Below are positions 7,799 to 20,958 of a stretch of 64,000 bases of DNA, piece by piece. The stretch lies in sequence record PP261279.1; one strand, 5' to 3'. Made by a program: the position numbers and the translations under genes. Positions within the stretch are counted from its first letter, which is position 1. Each line of letters begins with the position of its first letter. The DNA is from Escherichia phage ECP2303. The notes beneath the pieces are model-generated. The model worked only from the letters and a program-made list of their open reading frames with translations, searched no databases and was not told the DNA's origin.

Positions 7799-9271
7799 TC
7801 TGGAGTTTTAATGGATAGCAGAAGTTCAGAAATCATTGCCTCACAGAAAGATGATGCCCTGAGAATGTTGCAGGCTGCACGTATGTATCTCCTTGAAAAG
7901 CTGCCGTTTTATGGCACACTGCTGTCAGGATTGCAGTTCGTAGAAAACCACACATGGTGCTCCACCATGGCAACCGACCATAAACGCATCTATTACAGCC
8001 CTGAGTTCATTATGGGATTGGCTGATGAACGCAAGGTTATTCTTAAGGCTTCTCTAACTGACGAACAGTTTGAGATGGCTGAGGTTTTCTATTCCCTCAA
8101 ATCTGTGAAAGAGGTGGCTTTTCTTCTGTCACACGAGGTGGGGCATATTATCTGTGATCACCTGGTCCGTGGTAAAAGCTTCGAGCCGGAACTGTTTAAT
8201 ATTGCTTGTGATCATGTTATCAACACAGGTCTTGTGGTTGACTTTAGCAAGCCTCCCTGTGTTTTCTTCCCGAAGGGGAAAAGCACTACGTTCGTGAAAG
8301 GTAAGCCTTTTGGTTTCTTAGCCAGCTGCTACTGCGACATGAGGTTTCATGGATGGATTGCTGAGAACGTCTATGCGGTTCTTGATAAGCAAAGAGATCA
8401 GAATAACGGTAAAAGTAAGAGCGGTAAAGGTGAGAACTCTCAAGGGGATAAGCGACAAACCGATGATCACATGAGTGGGAACGGTGGCACCAGCGATGAT
8501 CTTGGAAAGGCTATGGGGTATGATCAGCCACAACCTGTAATCAGCCAATCTGATAAAGATCAGGCCATGCAAGACTCTGGTGACATGCTGGAAGCAGCAA
8601 TGCAAGCTTCCGGAGGTCGTTGCCCCGAGGCGGTGCGTGAGTTTGTCAAGAACAGAGGTAAGCCTGTAATCAACTATATAGACATCATTAAGCAACGCAT
8701 GTTGTCTAAACGAAAGGCCGAACTGACCTACAGAAAACCTGGTCGCCGATCTGGGTCTTTGACCAGCACAATGCGAAAAGTTGGGGCTATAAACAAGAAC
8801 CAGCACGTTATTGTTCCTGGTCGTAATCCGGAAAACACCATAGATATTGTGGTAGCTTTAGACGTTTCTGGCTCGATATCTCAAAGAACTTTAAAGAAAA
8901 TGTTCAATGAAATCACCGGATTGTGCAATCTGTATAAAGAGTTTAAGGTTACAATGTTCTGTTGGTCAACTGAAGTCGGAGAGGTTAAAGTATATACTCG
9001 CGGCAACATAGACGAAATGATCAACTATGAGGTCCACTCAACATGGGGCACAACAGCTGCTTGCGTGTTCGAGTATCTGGATGCCAACATACCAAATGCA
9101 AAAGATGTCATCGTCCTGACCGACCTATACTTTGAGCATAACTTTGAACAAAAGGCTGTTGACAACAAGTGGAAAAAGTACGATACTTTATGGGTTCTCA
9201 CCGAAGGGTATAATAAAAATTATATCCCTAGCTTTGGTAAAACTGTGGAATTAATCGAGTACGCTAAGTAA
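7790..9271 (+). CDS. Metallopeptidase-motif + von Willebrand factor A domain protein (DUF2201-like architecture); probable true start at 7811
   Basis: N-terminal half contains HExxH (SHEVGHIICDH). C-terminal half contains the VWA MIDAS motif DxSxS (VALDVSGSIS). Proteins of this architecture are typically partners of MoxR ATPases. Confidence 0.8.
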   Translation: MAPSGVLMDSRSSEIIASQKDDALRMLQAARMYLLEKLPFYGTLLSGLQFVENHTWCSTMATDHKRIYYSPEFIMGLADERKVILKASLTDEQFEMAEVFYSLKSVKEVAFLLSHEVGHIICDHLVRGKSFEPELFNIACDHVINTGLVVDFSKPPCVFFPKGKSTTFVKGKPFGFLASCYCDMRFHGWIAENVYAVLDKQRDQNNGKSKSGKGENSQGDKRQTDDHMSGNGGTSDDLGKAMGYDQPQPVISQSDKDQAMQDSGDMLEAAMQASGGRCPEAVREFVKNRGKPVINYIDIIKQRMLSKRKAELTYRKPGRRSGSLTSTMRKVGAINKNQHVIVPGRNPENTIDIVVALDVSGSISQRTLKKMFNEITGLCNLYKEFKVTMFCWSTEVGEVKVYTRGNIDEMINYEVHSTWGTTAACVFEYLDANIPNAKDVIVLTDLYFEHNFEQKAVDNKWKKYDTLWVLTEGYNKNYIPSFGKTVELIEYAK

Positions 9272-13280: not shown

Positions 13281-13481
13281 ATGGCTGATTTTTGTAAAGA
13301 TTGCTCTGAAGAGTTGTTTGGCTTTGACTGCAAAGATTTGGAAGGTCTGATCACTGAGGATCAGTGGAAGGAAGGCTATGCAGCACCTGTTATTTGTGAA
13401 GGTTGTGGCTATACCTATGTTGACCATAAAGGTAAGCGCGTCAAGCCGTCTGAAGATGGGGCATGTTGGGAGTATTACTAA
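13281..13481 (+). CDS. Small zinc-ribbon-like protein (66 aa)
   Basis: CxxC...CxxC pattern (CKDC...CEGC). Last gene before the bidirectional terminator. Confidence 0.45.
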   Translation: MADFCKDCSEELFGFDCKDLEGLITEDQWKEGYAAPVICEGCGYTYVDHKGKRVKPSEDGACWEYY

Positions 13482-13485
13482 CTAT

Positions 13486-13520
13486 AAAAAGAAAGGGGCC
13501 GTTTGGCCCCTTTTTATTTA
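13486..13520. terminator. Bidirectional intrinsic terminator between the convergent early (+) and late (-) operons
   Basis: GGGGCCGTTTGGCCCC hairpin (13495-13510) flanked by an A-tract upstream and a T-tract downstream, so it is functional in both orientations. Confidence 0.7.
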
Positions 13521-13527
13521 CCCCTTG

Positions 13528-16500
13528 TTAACGAGAAAAGGTTGCGTAGGCTTCTAGACGATACTGCTGGTCACCAGGGAACATAACACCTATAGAGGCT
13601 GTCCCTAGAATCCTGCCTTCCCTTCCAGACTCCATTCTGAACCCTACCCATCCTGAACTCCTTGCAGCCTCGATGTTGTCGCTATACCCGAAAGTGGCAA
13701 GATCGTCAACACCAGCCCCAAACAGCAACTGAAGCTGACTTCTCGGAAGCCCTATAATTTCAGGAATATACGCACCAAAGTACACCATCTGCCCTACCTT
13801 AGGACCGCTGCCGTACTCCATCGGTTTGCTTGTAGAGAAAGTCTTCATACCAGAAGTACCTGCCGGATTAGGGTATGCCCCGTTTGTTGCTGTACCTATC
13901 CACATTCTCCACTGTGGTGCCATCTGTTTAACAGTAAAAGATGTTGAGGACGTTTTGCGGCCTGCATCATCTGTAACTACAAACTTTATGGTGACATTCC
14001 CAGTAGCTTTAAATGTTACCAGTCCTGTGGTAGCATCCACTGTTGCAATGTTGGTATTGCTACTTTCCCAAGTCTTTCTAATCCCAGATACGTTGGAAGG
14101 GGTAATAGAAGGTTCCTGCATCTGCAGTTTACCGCCCACAATCCCTATGCCGTTGCCAGGATTATACAGTGCACCAACCTCGTCTATAATGTTCCCTGCT
14201 TTGAGACTATACTTCCTTGAGAAATTGTAGGTTCCGTTATAAGTGTGTGTCCCTGAGAAGGTGACATCTGCCTTCCCGTAAGAGATGCAAACCAACGCAT
14301 ACTTCCTGTCAGGCAACGTTTCTCCAGTCTCTGGGTGAGTTTTACCTACCTGGAACACACTCGGGTCAGTAGAGTCGTGACTATCACTAACGGAGCTTGG
14401 ACCGCCCATCAACTGTGACAAACAATTCCTTACCCATGTCCAGTTATTATCGCTGGAGAAGTCCACAGTCAAATCAAACACAACCCACTCATTTGGCTTC
14501 CACACAGGTGTTGTAATGGACTTGCCTACACCACCTCCTTGGAGTGTTGCCGACTGTTCAGTGATCAGGGCCGCATAGGCCAGAGTTCCTAAACTCAGAG
14601 TCTGGCTTGCTGTCCTCACTACCTTAGAATCAGCATCTGTGAAGTTGTTGATGATTTGGAATGTGCCATAAGTGTTTTTACAGGTAATTCTGGCGTTCAG
14701 TGTGTCAATCTTCCTCACATCTGCCATAGCAGTGTTAGACACAGAGAAGTCAGAAGCTTTAGCTGAGTTTGCCGCAACAGCAGGATCAACGTTAAGAGTT
14801 GCGTTGAACTGACAAGCAGGAGTAACCAGTAGCTTGTTATCACCTATTTGCTTCCATGAAACACTTTGAACAGGGAGATTCCATTTAATACCTGAGAAAA
14901 CCTTAGCAACCCTTGGCCCCAAAGCTCCAGTCCTGTTGTCTTTACAGCACATAGACATGGTGATCGTTGACGGAGTGGCCTGACCAAATAATTGCTGTGC
15001 TTTTGCAGAGGACATAGTGTAGAAATTGTCCTTAACAAACTCATCAGCAGCTAAAGATCCATCAGCTCTCCACCACTGAACCTGATACCCTGTTTTGTCC
15101 CAACCACCGACCTGCTTCAAGTCCTCCCAGGAGATTTCCAGATCCCCGGTGGTAGGATTGATTGCAGCAGTTCCTGGTGTTCCAGATGACCATATTGGAA
15201 TATCGAACCACGCTGGTTTAACCGACTGCACTGCGCTGGGACCTATTGCGGCAGCAAGTTGCTGGCCCATCAATACGCGAGCATCTTTCACCAGACCCCA
15301 CTCAATCATAGACCCAGAGTAACCTTCTTTCTTGTAGGCTGAGGATCCGTTCAAATGGATGAGTCGGCTTGTGCCAAAGTTATGTGCTCCACCACCGTTG
15401 TCGTCTGCAAAATTGGTTATGATTCTGTCCCTGATATTTTTCCATGCCCTGCCTCCAATCTCGTAGTCATGGTCATAACATCTTTGCAGTGTTGTCCAGC
15501 AAATGATCGCCATCCTTCTACCATTGCTGAAGCCAAAGGCCTGATCGTTAAGCTCTCTCCACAAGTAGCAGTTGGTGGTCCACATGGCCCTATGAATGTT
15601 AAACCAGTTTATAGATTTGGCTGAGTTGTTCCACTGAGTCCCAGGTAATTCAGGCCATACTGCATTAACCAGCATGTCTTCTGTTCCTGCATCAACCAAG
15701 AACCCTCTCACCTTCTTACCCATGCCTACCCTATCTTTTGCAATCCAACTGCCAAACAATCTCAGTTTTGGACCGTAGACAACATCTTCCGGATGCTCAA
15801 AAGAAATATATTTTAGGTATATTGTAGGGTCACCATAGGTGCCATCACAAACAGCTTTGTGCATGTTCTCACCAAGGTCTAGACGAAGTCCTGTTACAAC
15901 TCTAGACGTGTCGGTGAATTTGTCTGTTAAATCAAACTCATACCACCACCAACCTGCACCCAACAATACTTTCTTACAACGCTGTGCATCTGTATCAGAT
16001 ATTCTCTTATCGCCTGCAAAAGGTGAGTCAGCAAACTGATAGTGCAGAGCAACCTCAAAAGGATGTGTGGATGTCCCGTTTTCTGCAAGAACTTGTTTAC
16101 CTATCAGGTCGCACTTAATGATCATCACAACACGTTTGTATCCGTTTGTTACCGGAATTTGCATGGACATGGATGTCCCATCCATGTTTGATCTCAGTGC
16201 AGTCATGATGATATAAGGGTCAACGGCATTGCCCAAAGTCTCAGGACCGGGGATTATCTTATACTTCTTGACCTGCCCCATGATGTAGTCACTTGCGTAA
16301 GTTGCCTCATTCAAGCAAGATCCTCCACCAGGTAACTCACCAGGTCCCCAGAAAAATGCGCCGTAACAGTTGTAGAACCACTTGTTAGGATCGTATTTAT
16401 TCTTGAAGGTCTGAACCTCGTTGGCCTGTTTTGTCAAGAAAACCTGCGTGTCTGTGAAGATTGCAGGGTTTACTCTCGCCTGTCTTGGAGGGTAACCTGT

Positions 16501-19164
16501 AGTTTGGTTAAACCACAAATTACAAGAGTAATCCCTCATATAGTCATAATCAGAGTATTTGTTTACATCTTCGTTCCAACACATGTTTAGGTTGGTACCG
16601 CCCATGCATACAATATATTCTGCGACATACTTATCACTTCTGGTAGGAATACCTATGAACCATCTGTTAACAGGCTCATCCCAAGCTGTGCGCTCATCTT
16701 TAACGCAGATAGCAATCCAGTCATGTGTTCCTGTTTTCTTGCACACATCTCGCTTCATACCATAGTAGAACTCTTTAGTATTCGGCTCAGGTGCATTTAT
16801 CAGGTAACTCCATGCCTGATTTGCATAAGTTCCATTGGTGCGTGGATCATGATCAAAGGCATACATGATGATCCTTTCCCCACCAAGATGTTCGCCAAGA
16901 GTAACTTTGACATTCACATCGCCGTAACCATTGCGAACAACATCCATATTGTCAATAGAGATGCCTCTGGGAGTGTAGGCAATCTTCAGCGAGTTATCCT
17001 CACTAGTGCCACCAAGTGTAATCCCTATGTTGTTTGTTGTCCCGTCGGCATATCTTACTGTGGCTTCCCAGCGTATTCCGAAATATCCTGCATCATGGCT
17101 AACAATTTTCAGTGTACGAGCACCAGAGTTAGGTTTTCCAGGATCAGGCCAAGGATTTGGATGTTCATGGACAGTCAACGATGTCCCGTTTTGCTCGTTG
17201 ACCTGCAACATTTTACCGCCTCTGCCGTTAGGGTTGAACTCCCACAAGGCTTGTGTTTTCACAATATTGTCATACGTGGTACGTCTCTGATCGTAGATCT
17301 CCTGAGTCACATCGTAGGTTACAGACCCGGCATCCATTCTATGGAGTCGTACTATATACGATGTATCGCCTTCTACAGCAGGTTGAGCTGCGTTAAGCCC
17401 GAAGTATACAGTATCGTTGACATGGAACTGTTTGTTTCTACCGACAGTATGCCACTTGCCGTTGGACGGGTACGCTGGGACGATAGTGTTCCAGTTCAAA
17501 GTCCTTGTTGTGTGGGTTCTGCCTGTGCCATGTTTGTCATGATAGGTTATTTTTACAGAGTACAGTCCACGTCTGTTAACATTTCTGTTATATTGGGTAA
17601 CAACAACTTCGTTGGCCCCGCCGTGGTTCCAGTTGGTGGAGAATTGGTAATTTGCATCTGTAACAACCGTGCCTGCAGCATTTACCAGTTCAATCTTGTC
17701 AATAATGAACGTAGCCCCCTCTGGCTGAGGCTTCAATTTCATCTTGACCGTGTCACCAATGTAAATATTGCTAACGCTGCTAACACCGTTAACTTCGAAA
17801 ATATCATCAACACCCCAACTGTCTACTGGGACATTTTTATACCAATTCTCAGGAACCTCTGTGAACCCCTGGCTATTAAGTCTGCCGCCAAACAGGTTGT
17901 TAGATCCTGCAAAACTTCCCCTTGGGATGCCTGACCACCAAAGTTTACCATTAACAACAGTAAAGGTTCCTAAGAAACCTTCTCTGTGGATGCCTTGGAA
18001 ATAAACACTCTCTGTCCAGCTAACTGGCAGGCGTTGCTCAACATATTTAGCTGTAGCAAGAGCTTGATAGTGGATAAAATTAGCCCTAGGGCTATTGTTT
18101 GCAGATTGTGCACCAATATCATTACACAAGTTGCGAGAGAATCCACGATACTGTTTAGTGCCATTATTGAAGAAAATGCCACTTGTGCCATATCCACGAG
18201 CCATTATCACCTCATGGGTGTAGGTGATATTTAAGGAACGCCATGTGTCATCTCCCCAGACGTCTTGCCCGTAGAATACGTTAACAAGCTGCTGGTCATT
18301 GGGTTTGTGCATCCTCTGTGTGGCAATTATTGCCCCGTTAGGGCCACACATAAACCCTTTCCACTCCTCATCTGCAGGAATGCCCCTCAAATCGTTACGA
18401 GTAATCTGCACAGGGGGCCAAACAAGGTCGTTTCTACTGTTATTTCTCAGAAAGTCGTATCCAGCAATCCAGAAACCCCTAGGACCACCGAAAATAACAG
18501 AATTGTCATGCACCTCGCAGTTGATGCTTGGGTTTTTCCAAGGTCCTGTTTCAGGATTTTCCGATGTCTCACCAATCTTCACAGGGGTTGCATGCTGATT
18601 TTTATCTACATGTAAAGATCCGTAGGTGTTGTTACCAGATCCATACAGGTTAAGTATGCCAGTACCTTCTGCCTCTGCAATAACCCAGACAGTGTTGTTA
18701 ATACCGCCCATCACCTCAATAAGGCGTTCTGGGTGGGTGTCAAGGTGCAATCCTTTAACAATCTGCTCTGGGAGTGGTGTCCACTCGTTTACGCAAACAT
18801 CATTACCGCCTGCAGCAGTGGATCCGATAAGACCTGCAGTGCAGCCGATGTAGAAAAACTGGTTATCAAAAGTCCGGATCACAAACGCGCGGTCTGCTCT
18901 CCACACATGATCAACATTCCAGGCTGTTTCGCTCGGATAGTTTATAGGGCTACGATCCCCAGTGCGGCACTCTCCGAACTTGTTATAGCCGGTAATATTA
19001 AGCTGACCATCATCAAAAAGTATAGCTAAGCTATTTACATAGGATACTGTGTTGCTTGTACCATCACTGTTGTCTATTGGGTATGACAGAACAGCAAGTT
19101 CCTTAATTCCACCCCTCTTATCGAGGAAATGACGACCAAGTTTTAGCAAAGGGATTGGAAGCAT
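13528..19164 (-). CDS. Giant virion-associated protein (1878 aa), fibre/adhesin-like, with a C-terminal Ig-like domain
   Basis: Single uninterrupted ORF at the end of the late fibre block. Gly/Asn/Thr-rich beta-type composition and a Big_2-like Ig motif near the C-terminus (NIATVDATTGLVTFKATGNVTIKFVVTDDAG). Confidence 0.75.
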   Translation of the reverse strand: MLPIPLLKLGRHFLDKRGGIKELAVLSYPIDNSDGTSNTVSYVNSLAILFDDGQLNITGYNKFGECRTGDRSPINYPSETAWNVDHVWRADRAFVIRTFDNQFFYIGCTAGLIGSTAAGGNDVCVNEWTPLPEQIVKGLHLDTHPERLIEVMGGINNTVWVIAEAEGTGILNLYGSGNNTYGSLHVDKNQHATPVKIGETSENPETGPWKNPSINCEVHDNSVIFGGPRGFWIAGYDFLRNNSRNDLVWPPVQITRNDLRGIPADEEWKGFMCGPNGAIIATQRMHKPNDQQLVNVFYGQDVWGDDTWRSLNITYTHEVIMARGYGTSGIFFNNGTKQYRGFSRNLCNDIGAQSANNSPRANFIHYQALATAKYVEQRLPVSWTESVYFQGIHREGFLGTFTVVNGKLWWSGIPRGSFAGSNNLFGGRLNSQGFTEVPENWYKNVPVDSWGVDDIFEVNGVSSVSNIYIGDTVKMKLKPQPEGATFIIDKIELVNAAGTVVTDANYQFSTNWNHGGANEVVVTQYNRNVNRRGLYSVKITYHDKHGTGRTHTTRTLNWNTIVPAYPSNGKWHTVGRNKQFHVNDTVYFGLNAAQPAVEGDTSYIVRLHRMDAGSVTYDVTQEIYDQRRTTYDNIVKTQALWEFNPNGRGGKMLQVNEQNGTSLTVHEHPNPWPDPGKPNSGARTLKIVSHDAGYFGIRWEATVRYADGTTNNIGITLGGTSEDNSLKIAYTPRGISIDNMDVVRNGYGDVNVKVTLGEHLGGERIIMYAFDHDPRTNGTYANQAWSYLINAPEPNTKEFYYGMKRDVCKKTGTHDWIAICVKDERTAWDEPVNRWFIGIPTRSDKYVAEYIVCMGGTNLNMCWNEDVNKYSDYDYMRDYSCNLWFNQTTGYPPRQARVNPAIFTDTQVFLTKQANEVQTFKNKYDPNKWFYNCYGAFFWGPGELPGGGSCLNEATYASDYIMGQVKKYKIIPGPETLGNAVDPYIIMTALRSNMDGTSMSMQIPVTNGYKRVVMIIKCDLIGKQVLAENGTSTHPFEVALHYQFADSPFAGDKRISDTDAQRCKKVLLGAGWWWYEFDLTDKFTDTSRVVTGLRLDLGENMHKAVCDGTYGDPTIYLKYISFEHPEDVVYGPKLRLFGSWIAKDRVGMGKKVRGFLVDAGTEDMLVNAVWPELPGTQWNNSAKSINWFNIHRAMWTTNCYLWRELNDQAFGFSNGRRMAIICWTTLQRCYDHDYEIGGRAWKNIRDRIITNFADDNGGGAHNFGTSRLIHLNGSSAYKKEGYSGSMIEWGLVKDARVLMGQQLAAAIGPSAVQSVKPAWFDIPIWSSGTPGTAAINPTTGDLEISWEDLKQVGGWDKTGYQVQWWRADGSLAADEFVKDNFYTMSSAKAQQLFGQATPSTITMSMCCKDNRTGALGPRVAKVFSGIKWNLPVQSVSWKQIGDNKLLVTPACQFNATLNVDPAVAANSAKASDFSVSNTAMADVRKIDTLNARITCKNTYGTFQIINNFTDADSKVVRTASQTLSLGTLAYAALITEQSATLQGGGVGKSITTPVWKPNEWVVFDLTVDFSSDNNWTWVRNCLSQLMGGPSSVSDSHDSTDPSVFQVGKTHPETGETLPDRKYALVCISYGKADVTFSGTHTYNGTYNFSRKYSLKAGNIIDEVGALYNPGNGIGIVGGKLQMQEPSITPSNVSGIRKTWESSNTNIATVDATTGLVTFKATGNVTIKFVVTDDAGRKTSSTSFTVKQMAPQWRMWIGTATNGAYPNPAGTSGMKTFSTSKPMEYGSGPKVGQMVYFGAYIPEIIGLPRSQLQLLFGAGVDDLATFGYSDNIEAARSSGWVGFRMESGREGRILGTASIGVMFPGDQQYRLEAYATFSR

Positions 19165-19212
19165 TGTGTTCTCCAGATAAGAAAACCGCCCCGTCAGGAG
19201 CGGTTAGATATA

Positions 19213-20958
19213 TTAACGTTGTGCAATTACTACGTCTACGATATCACCAACACCACAATACGTTAATTGCAGCAAGGTAACACTGTTAGCCTTGTTGTTA
19301 ATAACAGGTGTTGCCGACAGGATAGCATACTTATCGTGCAAAGTCACGTTGTGACCTACAGCATCCTGAATTACATAGATAACCGCAGTGAATGGATAAG
19401 GTTTATCTTCCGCTGATGTCCCAGGCCACTGTCCTATTGTAAAATCCCCTTTCGCGTGAACAACATACATACTGGCCTGCCCGTTAGGTGTCCATGTCCC
19501 ACTGGACGCGTCAACCTCCTCTAAATCAAAATCTACCTTTCCTGCGTGGAAAGTAGGGGCAGTAATGGTTTTACCCGCCTCAATTTCTTGAGAGGTGGTT
19601 ATCTTGCCACTGGAGTTAATGCCATTACAGACAAAGTTGACATTAGAGAAGTCAGGCAACCACCCAGTCACCGTGCCGGATATTTCAAGGTTGTGAACAG
19701 AGGTGGTGCCAGTCCCTGCTGCGTTTAAACTGACATCTCCATTTACCTGCAAGTTGCGGGTAACGTTGCAGTTTTCAGAGTTTGCAGTTGTTGCAGTTAA
19801 AGTGGTTGTTGTCAGCTCGGTAATTACACCTTTGTTGGCTGTAAGCCCTTCTCCTTCAAAAGTTGCACGCTCATTGACTCTTAAGGTATTCAGAGCTATG
19901 TTTTGGATAGAGGCCGTACCTCGAATAACTACAGACCCGCCAATCTCCAAATCGCCATTTATCAATGCATCACCAGTGCTTTCAATATAGCTAGGATAGA
20001 TCATGGTGCCATCGACAGAGTATGTTATCCCTGTAACGGTACCTGTCACCTCAAGGTTCTTAACCCTGGTGGTCCCATCGACCTGCAATGTCGGTTCGGT
20101 TGCTGCCTTCATGGCATTACCACGAATGTACACGTAGTCAAAAAAGTTATTACCCAGACCATCAAAATGCACATCGTTATTATTAGCCACTGGTTTCCCA
20201 GAAGTTATAGTGTCAGCTATAACCCTGTGGGTGGACACTTCATGAGGTTGCAGCTCTGTACTTCTCCAGTCTGCATGCTTAGGATCGCTCCACGCAAAAG
20301 TAAGTGTAGAAGTATTTGCCGTGAGGATTAGATTCCTAAAGCGTGCAGTAGAATCTGCCCCATTAACAGGTCCATGTAAGGTAAGGGTGCCACCAACTAT
20401 AGTGTTAGCGAGTTCTGTAAGACCTTTTACCACCAAAGATCCTACAGTAACTTTCATCCCCTCCATGGCTTTAAATATGCTATCAACATAGTCAACAACA
20501 AACTCTGTGTTTGCTATGGACTCTGACTTATCGTCCATTGGAGGTGTAGGTACTCGCGGGTCACCTTCGAACCTTGGGCTGTTAAGTTTTGCGTAGTATT
20601 TTGCCATTACTGCAGAGTCGGTGTATAATCTCCAGTTTGGAGATTGTGAAGGATCTGCTGGCATTCTAACCGGGTTAGATTTTGATGCTGCTGGGGCGTA
20701 CCACCACTGAGTGCCTGTATCCCCTTTAAACTCATACAACTGGTTAAAAACTGTTGTGGATGCACCATACGCCCAAGGGATTGGTGGCGTTTTAAAATAA
20801 AGGGTGTCAAGCATGGCTTTTCGTACCGTAGGGATAGTGGTCCCATCCTCTACGACAACTTCATCCACAGCGTTACCGTTGACAATCAAGTGCAAACGTT
20901 CAGAATCAACAATTACTTGATCTACCGCCTGCTCGAAGCTTGTCATGTCTTGCGCCAT
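19213..20958 (-). CDS. Tail fibre / tailspike-like protein (581 aa)
   Basis: Thr/Asn/Gly-rich repetitive beta-strand composition typical of fibres; located inside the fibre cluster. Confidence 0.6.
   Translation of the reverse strand: MAQDMTSFEQAVDQVIVDSERLHLIVNGNAVDEVVVEDGTTIPTVRKAMLDTLYFKTPPIPWAYGASTTVFNQLYEFKGDTGTQWWYAPAASKSNPVRMPADPSQSPNWRLYTDSAVMAKYYAKLNSPRFEGDPRVPTPPMDDKSESIANTEFVVDYVDSIFKAMEGMKVTVGSLVVKGLTELANTIVGGTLTLHGPVNGADSTARFRNLILTANTSTLTFAWSDPKHADWRSTELQPHEVSTHRVIADTITSGKPVANNNDVHFDGLGNNFFDYVYIRGNAMKAATEPTLQVDGTTRVKNLEVTGTVTGITYSVDGTMIYPSYIESTGDALINGDLEIGGSVVIRGTASIQNIALNTLRVNERATFEGEGLTANKGVITELTTTTLTATTANSENCNVTRNLQVNGDVSLNAAGTGTTSVHNLEISGTVTGWLPDFSNVNFVCNGINSSGKITTSQEIEAGKTITAPTFHAGKVDFDLEEVDASSGTWTPNGQASMYVVHAKGDFTIGQWPGTSAEDKPYPFTAVIYVIQDAVGHNVTLHDKYAILSATPVINNKANSVTLLQLTYCGVGDIVDVVIAQR

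Follow-up and report, generated by a model that had tools for sequence, protein, structure and literature searches.

A giant gene closing the tail-fibre module of Escherichia phage ECP2303 and its possible role as an accessory tail adhesin

Introduction

The minus-strand structural block in the 64,000-nucleotide (nt) stretch of Escherichia phage ECP2303 analysed here (record PP261279.1; the whole stretch is referred to below as the window) ends in a single open reading frame (ORF) of 5.6 kb encoding 1878 amino acids (aa), and the question raised by this locus is what kind of protein such a gene provides. The original prediction, made from the letters of the sequence, proposed either an unusually long adhesin or fibre, or a multi-domain virion protein carrying enzymatic activities. 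On balance, the evidence presented here favours a low-copy virion structural protein which would be attached to the tail and serve as an accessory glycan adhesin; the gene that encodes it is conserved, evolves under purifying selection and stands last in the tail-fibre module.

The gene itself is already known, since it had been catalogued, deposited and named, and its product detected in virions as rV5 gp27, before this analysis. Phages related to rV5 are often-isolated, broad-host-range coliphages employed against pathogenic E. coli, O157:H7 included, and it is still unsettled which of their genes build which fibres; knowledge of the ligands would aid the prediction and engineering of host range. 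The giant gene is strictly conserved and takes up about 4% of the genome.

Results

The giant gene and its homologues

The ORF (13528..19164, minus strand) starts with ATG and runs uninterrupted by any internal stop, as was confirmed by ORF listing and translation; a GGAG ribosome-binding site was read from the sequence at 19171..19174 (minus strand), 6 nt before the start codon. By our arithmetic, at about one stop per 21 random codons, the chance of 1878 open codons is approximately e^-90. The predicted product has a mass of 208.4 kDa and a pI of 6.6, and its content of G (9.9%), T (8.0%), N (7.1%), S (6.2%) and W (3.0%) is typical of an adhesin or fibre, in line with the fibre-like composition recognised at the outset.

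Escherichia phage ECP2309 (genus Vequintavirus) matches the window at 100% identity, and the same gene order is found in ECP2309, CarlMeissner and rV5; judged from the ORFs of the window and from annotated relatives, the giant ORF closes the structural block and its tail-fibre cluster, in keeping with the position at the end of a late operon first proposed. The whole gene is an orthologue of rV5 gp27, ECP2309 WXX18329.1 and BASEL bas48_0041 (CarlMeissner), these Vequintavirus proteins sharing 91-100% identity over their full length in the same position and at the same length, and the PHROG 15684 profile, which stands for the rV5 gp27 orthologous group, aligns end to end (1-1878/1878, 4500 bits). 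The giant ORF is matched by 120 phage records, 107-109 of them at a coverage of at least 80% and mostly in one unbroken aligned piece. Metagenomic assemblies added 15 homologous clusters of 1711-1976 aa, with 43-96% identity and the same gene neighbourhood, and even the homologues at 43-53% identity are intact and of full length (1929-1976 aa). The check on conservation and length variation that had been proposed earlier thus found the ORF to be kept in some 110 phage records and, within the range given, in metagenomes.

Between ECP2309 and CarlMeissner the ratio of nonsynonymous to synonymous divergence (dN/dS) amounts to 0.063 over the full gene and to no more than 0.15 in each of six segments, values which at the level of sequence comparison identify a gene under strong purifying selection. 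Synonymous divergence (dS) in the same comparison is uneven, rising from 0.04 (aa 761-1329 and aa 1681-1878) to 0.41 (aa 446-760), and this tenfold variation along the gene points to mosaic recombination within it. A few records split the giant ORF into 2-4 ORFs (naswa, ime, Alma, phita32, V18 and APCEc02). In APCEc02 about aa 434-1415 are missing and the frame is broken, the end of the predicted propeller described below (~aa 433) being joined to ~aa 1416 (L011 2501-5173), and V18 has several large deletions and broken frames (L012 2501-7063). These two are either natural loss-of-function variants or poor assemblies; they offer weak evidence that the giant protein may be dispensable in the laboratory, weak because the quality of the assemblies cannot be judged.

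Presence in virions

In rV5, gp27 (1878 aa, 208,334 Da) was detected in virions by 3 peptides and 9 spectra with 3.1% coverage, being one of the 19 proteins in the shotgun proteome table (PMC3606486 supplement). The detection concerns rV5, whose orthologue is 98.6% identical over the C-terminal region; through this orthologue the giant protein is a virion structural protein, and the mass spectrometry (MS) of rV5 gp27 bears out the suggestion that the ORF encodes a virion component.

Deposited names comprise "structural protein with Ig domain" (ECP2309 WXX18329.1), "lateral tail fiber protein with intimin domain" and "hypothetical protein". The second is the name used in BASEL, where the gene was counted among three large fibre genes with allelic variation (PMC8594841). 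These names describe only the Big_2 domain treated below, and both "lateral tail fibre" and "intimin domain" claim more than the evidence shows.

N-terminal peptide and RCC1-like region

The protein begins with the peptide MLPIPLL (aa 1-7; 19144..19164, minus strand), which follows the pattern M-[LFY]-P-I-P-x-[LF]. Five lineages have kept this pattern at the beginning of their syntenic last tail gene: Vequintavirus, a metagenomic relative, Phapecoctavirus, Justusliebigvirus and Seunavirus. A weaker version, MIPFAII, opens phiTE_242, and the M-x-PIP start is kept in the phi92-like phage muut, whose protein has no propeller; no second ORF in the window begins with the pattern. Its distribution makes this peptide a candidate docking peptide.

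The peptide is followed by a putative RCC1-like beta-propeller (~aa 20-445; 17830..19107, minus strand), assigned from profiles and transitive homology and lying in the best conserved part of the protein, with identity to homologues of about 75% over aa 1-450, falling to about 50% over aa 450-1300 and 12-35% over aa 1450-1878. On the giant protein Pfam WD40_RLD gave an E-value of 2e-4 at 21.2 bits, below its cutoff of 150. The 891-aa homologue from Phapecoctavirus, which shares with it only aa 1-197 (42% identity, E 8e-29) and Big_2, scores above the RCC1 cutoff (PF00415, 24.0 vs 21.7 bits) and matches the PDB structures of the RLD domains of RPGR, HERC2 and UVR8 (E 2e-6 to 1e-3). A profile built from five lineages, the giant protein included, matched only RCC1-like structures in PDB (E 5e-5 to 5e-3), the best being UVR8 (4.8e-5), and a match to HERC1 covered 190 residues; a profile from the giant family alone gave no RCC1-like PDB match. 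Two RCC1-type repeat signatures, GYNKFGECRTG and GSGNNTYGSLH, are present in the giant protein and seven candidate blades can be read by eye in aa ~20-445, from which we infer a seven-bladed RCC1-like propeller. The likeness to RCC1, RPGR, HERC1/2 and UVR8 lies in the repeat signatures and in profile matches confined to this fold; however, in contrast to established RCC1-like proteins, the giant protein falls below the Pfam cutoffs, and a role in chromosome condensation is unsupported here.

In Septuagintavirus W70, the RCC1-annotated proteins W70_237-239 are abundant in virions by MS and DNA condensation has been proposed for them by the authors (PMC11370258). Given the RCC1-like N-terminus of tail-module proteins, they could instead be tail or fibre accessories. 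A word-indexed search with the N-terminal 460 aa of the giant protein returned only near relatives or fragments. A 318-aa partial protein (P0018), which NCBI labels Eggerthella lenta, matches part of the N-terminus at 97% identity and is probably phage contamination of a bacterial assembly.

Central region and C-terminal modules

With an alignment of 16 sequences, AlphaFold2 models were built for aa 1-760 and aa 741-1878, and only the confident segments of the latter model were used. Pfam was searched on six sub-windows at E<=10, and NCBIfam and PDB profile searches were carried out besides. Downstream of the predicted propeller lies an all-beta region (aa 449-760; 16885..17820, minus strand), in the low-confidence model probably 2-3 Ig-like or beta-sandwich modules, which by regional identity is swapped for a divergent version in homologue P0015. 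From aa 451 to 1320 the Pfam sub-windows gave no match and NCBIfam added none.

Within this span, aa 761-1329 (15178..16884, minus strand) form an orphan central region, rich in W and C, restricted to the family and holding conserved acidic and aromatic residues, with invariant stretches at ANEVQ (914-918), EDMLV (1162-1166), NWFNxHRAMW (1186-1195) and MIEWG (1286-1290). An exhaustive phmmer search with aa 741-1330 against 1.84 billion representatives recovered its own family only. The low-confidence model of the region is helical, and encloses a modelled jelly-roll resembling the beta-sandwich of a carbohydrate-binding module (CBM) at aa 970-1125 (15790..16257, minus strand). A possible likeness of ANEVQ...MIEWG to catalytic motifs of clan GH-A has no support from any tool and is not claimed.

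The C-terminal part opens with a predicted FN3-like module (aa 1330-1430; 14875..15177, minus strand), suggested by a weak Pfam fn3 match (E 0.064) and modelled at a predicted local distance difference test score (pLDDT) of 60-76, followed by Ig-like beta-sandwich modules which make up the most variable segment (aa 1431-1680; 14125..14874, minus strand). The C-terminal Ig-like motif noticed at the start is a true Pfam domain, Big_2 or bacterial Ig-like group 2 (PF02368, aa 1682-1733; 13966..14121, minus strand), scoring 33.5 bits against a cutoff of 22.8 on the whole protein and 36.0 bits on a sub-window, and it is the source of the "intimin domain" label. The protein ends in a small beta domain (aa 1751-1878; 13531..13914, minus strand), recognised by phrog_215 and the model, which is allelic together with Big_2: two alleles of the last 287 aa exist in the genus, one found in 73 records at 95% identity or more, the other in some 39 records at about 80%.

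The confident parts of the model resemble strings of Ig domains in S-layer proteins, protocadherins, NUP210 and an SU10 tail protein, and also match Big_2-CBM56, N4 gp65, lambda gpV-C and intimin, and the BFVD neighbours are generic Ig-bearing phage proteins. Sequence and profile searches of PDB with the whole protein or the family alignment gave Big_2-level matches or noise, and a word-indexed search with the C-terminal 448 aa found near relatives or fragments only. Of the analyses that the original prediction had proposed, domain searching by windows yielded Big_2, a weak fn3 and a sub-threshold RCC1-like match, with no catalytic family, and structure prediction succeeded in part, giving confident Ig-like segments at the C-terminus and an unusable model of the N-terminus (pLDDT 39).

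Layout of the locus

The gene directly upstream, a fibre gene of 581 aa (rV5 gp28; 19213..20958, minus strand), is a homologue of phiTE_241 and its product is the candidate docking partner. It matches chain g of the phiTE baseplate structure 9CUY (phiTE_241, "putative tail fiber protein", 793 aa) at E 6e-77, and carries Pfam phiTE_241_N and phiTE_241_C according to precomputed tables. Both fibres modelled in phiTE sit at the periphery of the wedge (PMC11972413). The upstream fibres of ECP2309 and ESCO13 share only their last 106 aa (51% identity), the rest being unrelated. This C-terminal domain of about 105 aa (the last 112 aa in the window, 19216-19551, minus strand) occurs in 385 phage records, including phi92-like, Seunavirus and Certrevirus phages, Klebsiella and Proteus myoviruses, and jumbo Asteriusvirus and Erwinia phages.

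Six lineages were compared: ECP2309, a metagenomic relative (L004), Phapecoctavirus ESCO13, phi92-like muut, Seunavirus SPLA5a and Certrevirus phiTE. In all six, a phiTE_241-type fibre gene with the conserved last ~105 aa is followed by a hairpin and T-run, then directly by a ribosome-binding site and the last gene, and fibre gene and last gene were adjacent in each of the four non-Vequintavirus genomes checked. The terminator-like hairpin with its T-run that separates the giant ORF from the upstream fibre gene (19184..19205, minus strand) has a folding energy of -15.1 kcal/mol (z -3.4); across the six lineages the energies lie between -13 and -18 kcal/mol, and the stems differ in sequence with pairing kept. 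Its counterparts were located at ~7970-7995 in L004, ~8963-8985 in L003 and 4273-4286 in L007, and also in L006 and L010, and the phiTE record annotates the equivalent hairpin as a terminator. The retention of a hairpin and T-run, followed by a ribosome-binding site, in six lineages suggests that the last gene may be expressed by terminator read-through. The length of this gene ranges from ~414 aa (phiTE, with an ORF that reaches the end of its record) to 1878 aa, Vequintavirus being the extreme.

Past the stop codon of the giant ORF lies a putative symmetric intrinsic terminator between convergent units (13492..13513, no strand assigned), a 9-bp GC-rich hairpin lying between an A-run and a T-run. 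A plus-strand ORF (13281..13481) ends facing this hairpin (13513-13492), which could serve both convergent transcription units; the earlier description of a bidirectional terminator is thus a fair reading of the sequence, and the terminator scan itself lists the minus strand only.

Discussion

A proposed accessory adhesin

Of the possibilities originally raised, an unusually long adhesin fits best with the Big_2 domain, the modular C-terminus, the alleles, the uneven dS along the gene and the presence in virions. If the giant protein is such an adhesin, it would be synthesised at a low level by read-through of the hairpin terminator past the upstream fibre gene, so that less of it would be made than of the fibre. 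The MLPIPLL peptide and the RCC1-like propeller (aa 1-445) may fix it to the tail, the anchor point being most probably the C-terminal domain conserved in the baseplate-anchored fibre encoded upstream (rV5 gp28/phiTE_241 family). The other ~1430 residues would then form a non-repetitive string of globular modules, plausibly tens of nanometres long, whose distal allelic modules might hold surface polysaccharide weakly and reversibly. Such binding could keep the phage on the surface of the cell as its other fibres bind the receptors known to be required, namely the enterobacterial common antigen (ECA)/NGR glycan and the lipopolysaccharide (LPS) core. Infection of K-12 by Vequintavirinae requires the ECA/NGR glycan, a dependence ascribed to the fibre with a deacetylase domain, and dependence on the LPS core has been ascribed to the short fibres (PMC8594841; bioRxiv 10.64898/2026.04.02.716166); since known receptor functions lie with other fibres, an accessory role is proposed for the giant protein. 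The last-gene protein goes unmentioned in the phi92 2026 paper and in the phiTE cryo-EM paper.

Several observations weigh against this reading, which should be considered with caution. The placement on the tail is derived from gene context and sequence, and gp28, the proposed partner, is not among the proteins in the rV5 MS table (PMC3606486 supplement). The fibre C-terminal domain is found in Klebsiella phage Iguana and jumbo phage phAPEC6, neither of which has the downstream partner gene, so that it has a role besides docking; the notion that it exists only as a dock for the giant protein was rejected on the same ground. Co-conservation of the junction between fibre and last gene could also reflect one inherited block. 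The Pfam RCC1 models stay under their cutoffs on the giant protein (RCC1_2, 13.3 vs 22), and because both AlphaFold models were poor, with pLDDT 39 for aa 1-760 (discarded as a test of the propeller fold) and 54 for aa 741-1878, the propeller and the fold of the central region are predictions. Some 570 residues with no relatives outside the family could carry the actual function of the protein. Lastly, PHROG 215, which matches aa 1592-1877 at E 1.8e-46, is filed under "head and packaging".

A more elaborate form of the proposed adhesin may be put forward tentatively, as a possibility and not as the expected outcome: a monomeric 208-kDa beads-on-a-string arm, plugged by the MxPIPxx peptide and the propeller into the tip of a trimeric fibre, would yield a branched fibre of low copy number through terminator read-through, with the central module as an undescribed fold for binding or processing glycan. 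If true, such an arm would add a new type to the receptor-binding appendages of phages. The RCC1-like module, the arrangement of fibre, terminator and MxPIP start, and the orphan central region are leads of which no statement was found in the literature read. The layout of fibre gene, leaky terminator and fixed peptide offers a testable handle on how fibres are wired across Vequintavirinae and Stephanstirmvirinae.

Comparison with known systems

Beyond Vequintavirus, the last-gene proteins of related genera are two to four times shorter and unrelated past ~aa 200-440. The Phapecoctavirus protein (ESCO13 gp245/phAPEC8, 891 aa) has the same position, the M-x-PIP start, Big_2 and an RCC1-like N-terminus, the last tested with Pfam in ESCO13; that of Seunavirus SPLA5a (573 aa) has the same position and start and aligns over the N-terminal region, as does phiTE_242, which lies in the same position behind a phiTE_241-type fibre and hairpin. 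In phi92-like muut, gp034 (628 aa) has the M-x-PIP start, Big_2 domains and a weakly SASA-esterase-like region, and its N-terminal region does not align. Only the Vequintavirus lineage and its metagenomic relatives possess the orphan central region and the variable string of Ig-like modules.

In T4 Hoc, lambda gpV (C-terminal domain) and N4 gp65, Ig domains number one to a few and accompany a different main function, whereas in the giant protein the modular arm is the whole protein, with its own putative anchor module. The architecture of intimin and invasin is absent: NCBIfam intimin_all reached 22.6 bits against 1400 over only 39 residues, and intimin matches in PDB are limited to aa 1687-1735. 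In contrast to known depolymerase tailspikes and virion glycosidases, no catalytic domain is recognisable by Pfam or PDB profiles. Branched assemblies that dock through a conserved N-terminal module are known from G7C gp63.1/gp66, the CBA120 tailspikes and the K1-5 adaptor. The giant protein is similar to these in its conserved N-terminus, its exchangeable remainder and its co-conservation with a domain of the neighbouring fibre, docking being putative here; unlike in those assemblies, the putative anchor would be a beta-propeller and not a trimeric adaptor fold.

Alternative explanations

Alternatively, the giant protein might make up the distal half of a trimeric lateral tail fibre of the classical type, in which it would be linked to the end of gp28 in the manner of T4 gp34-gp37 and be needed for infection. 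The gene does lie directly behind that of a baseplate-attached fibre and displays the N-conserved, C-variable pattern of receptor-binding proteins, and both the three large allelic fibre genes of BASEL (PMC8594841) and the thin fibres of about 70 nm on rV5 (PMC3606486) would suit such a structure. However, self-BLAST found no internal repeat, and no obvious beta-helix or coiled-coil is seen in the models, which show distinct beta-sandwich modules plus a helical patch; nothing in them resembles a shaft, and those modules that can be recognised are of globular type. Modules of the propeller, Ig, FN3 and CBM-like kinds usually fold as monomers. There is no chaperone gene downstream, the next gene being convergent, and neither a chaperone nor peptidase_S74 is among the Pfam matches of the giant protein; a terminator separates it from gp28, and the large deletions and broken frames of APCEc02 and V18, though their assemblies may be poor, also speak against an essential fibre. 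We therefore consider the classical form of the fibre first suggested to be unlikely.

An enzyme borne by the virion, with aa 761-1329 as a putative new glycan hydrolase, lyase or esterase and the Ig and CBM-like modules as substrate-binding accessories, adding a blade to the "Swiss army knife" reported in these phages, is improbable to a similar degree. In its favour, the region has many invariant acidic and aromatic residues and encloses the CBM-like jelly roll, the syntenic phi92-like protein has a weak match to the SASA esterases (E 0.019), and neighbouring fibre proteins of the family bear glycosidase and deacetylase domains. On the other hand, no catalytic family was found at any threshold in the Pfam, NCBIfam or PDB profile searches, in agreement with the absence of a catalytic motif to the eye and lending no support to the enzymatic option as first put; the phmmer search led back to the protein's own family, and the central region was modelled as helical at low confidence.

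Less probable again is an Ig-bearing fibre of the capsid or neck which, like Hoc, would stick to mucus or environmental glycans and play no part in host recognition. The PHROG 215 annotation, "structural protein with Ig domain", the presence of Hoc and Ig-domain head proteins among BFVD neighbours outside the family, and a weak match to a decoration protein in the PDB profile search (E 0.25) would fit this placement. Set against them are the position of the gene inside the tail-fibre module beside a baseplate fibre gene in six lineages, and peptide counts too low for a capsid decoration present in many copies; the category label of a PHROG is, moreover, not experimental evidence. Finally, the idea that sequencing or assembly errors merged several genes, a doubt voiced in the original prediction to which the records splitting the region might seem to give substance, has a negligible probability, refuted as it is by one ORF of 1711-1976 aa in ~110 independent genomes and the 15 metagenomic clusters, the low dN/dS overall and per segment, the PHROG 15684 model covering 1-1878 and the rV5 gp27 peptides in virions, which together establish one genuine gene.

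Additional observations

Between 15 and 20 GenBank records named "Campylobacter phage" (MG0656xx, host C. jejuni) contain a copy of the gene that is 93-99% identical to that of rV5-like phages of E. coli, and are most likely coliphage contaminants or have mislabelled hosts. Elsewhere in the window, the gene at ~7811-9271 (plus strand; L001 23894-25354) is annotated as "HNH endonuclease" in ECP2309 and as "putative metallopeptidase" in CarlMeissner; in the L004 homologue Pfam recognises DUF2201_N/DUF2201, and the HNH label seems doubtful.

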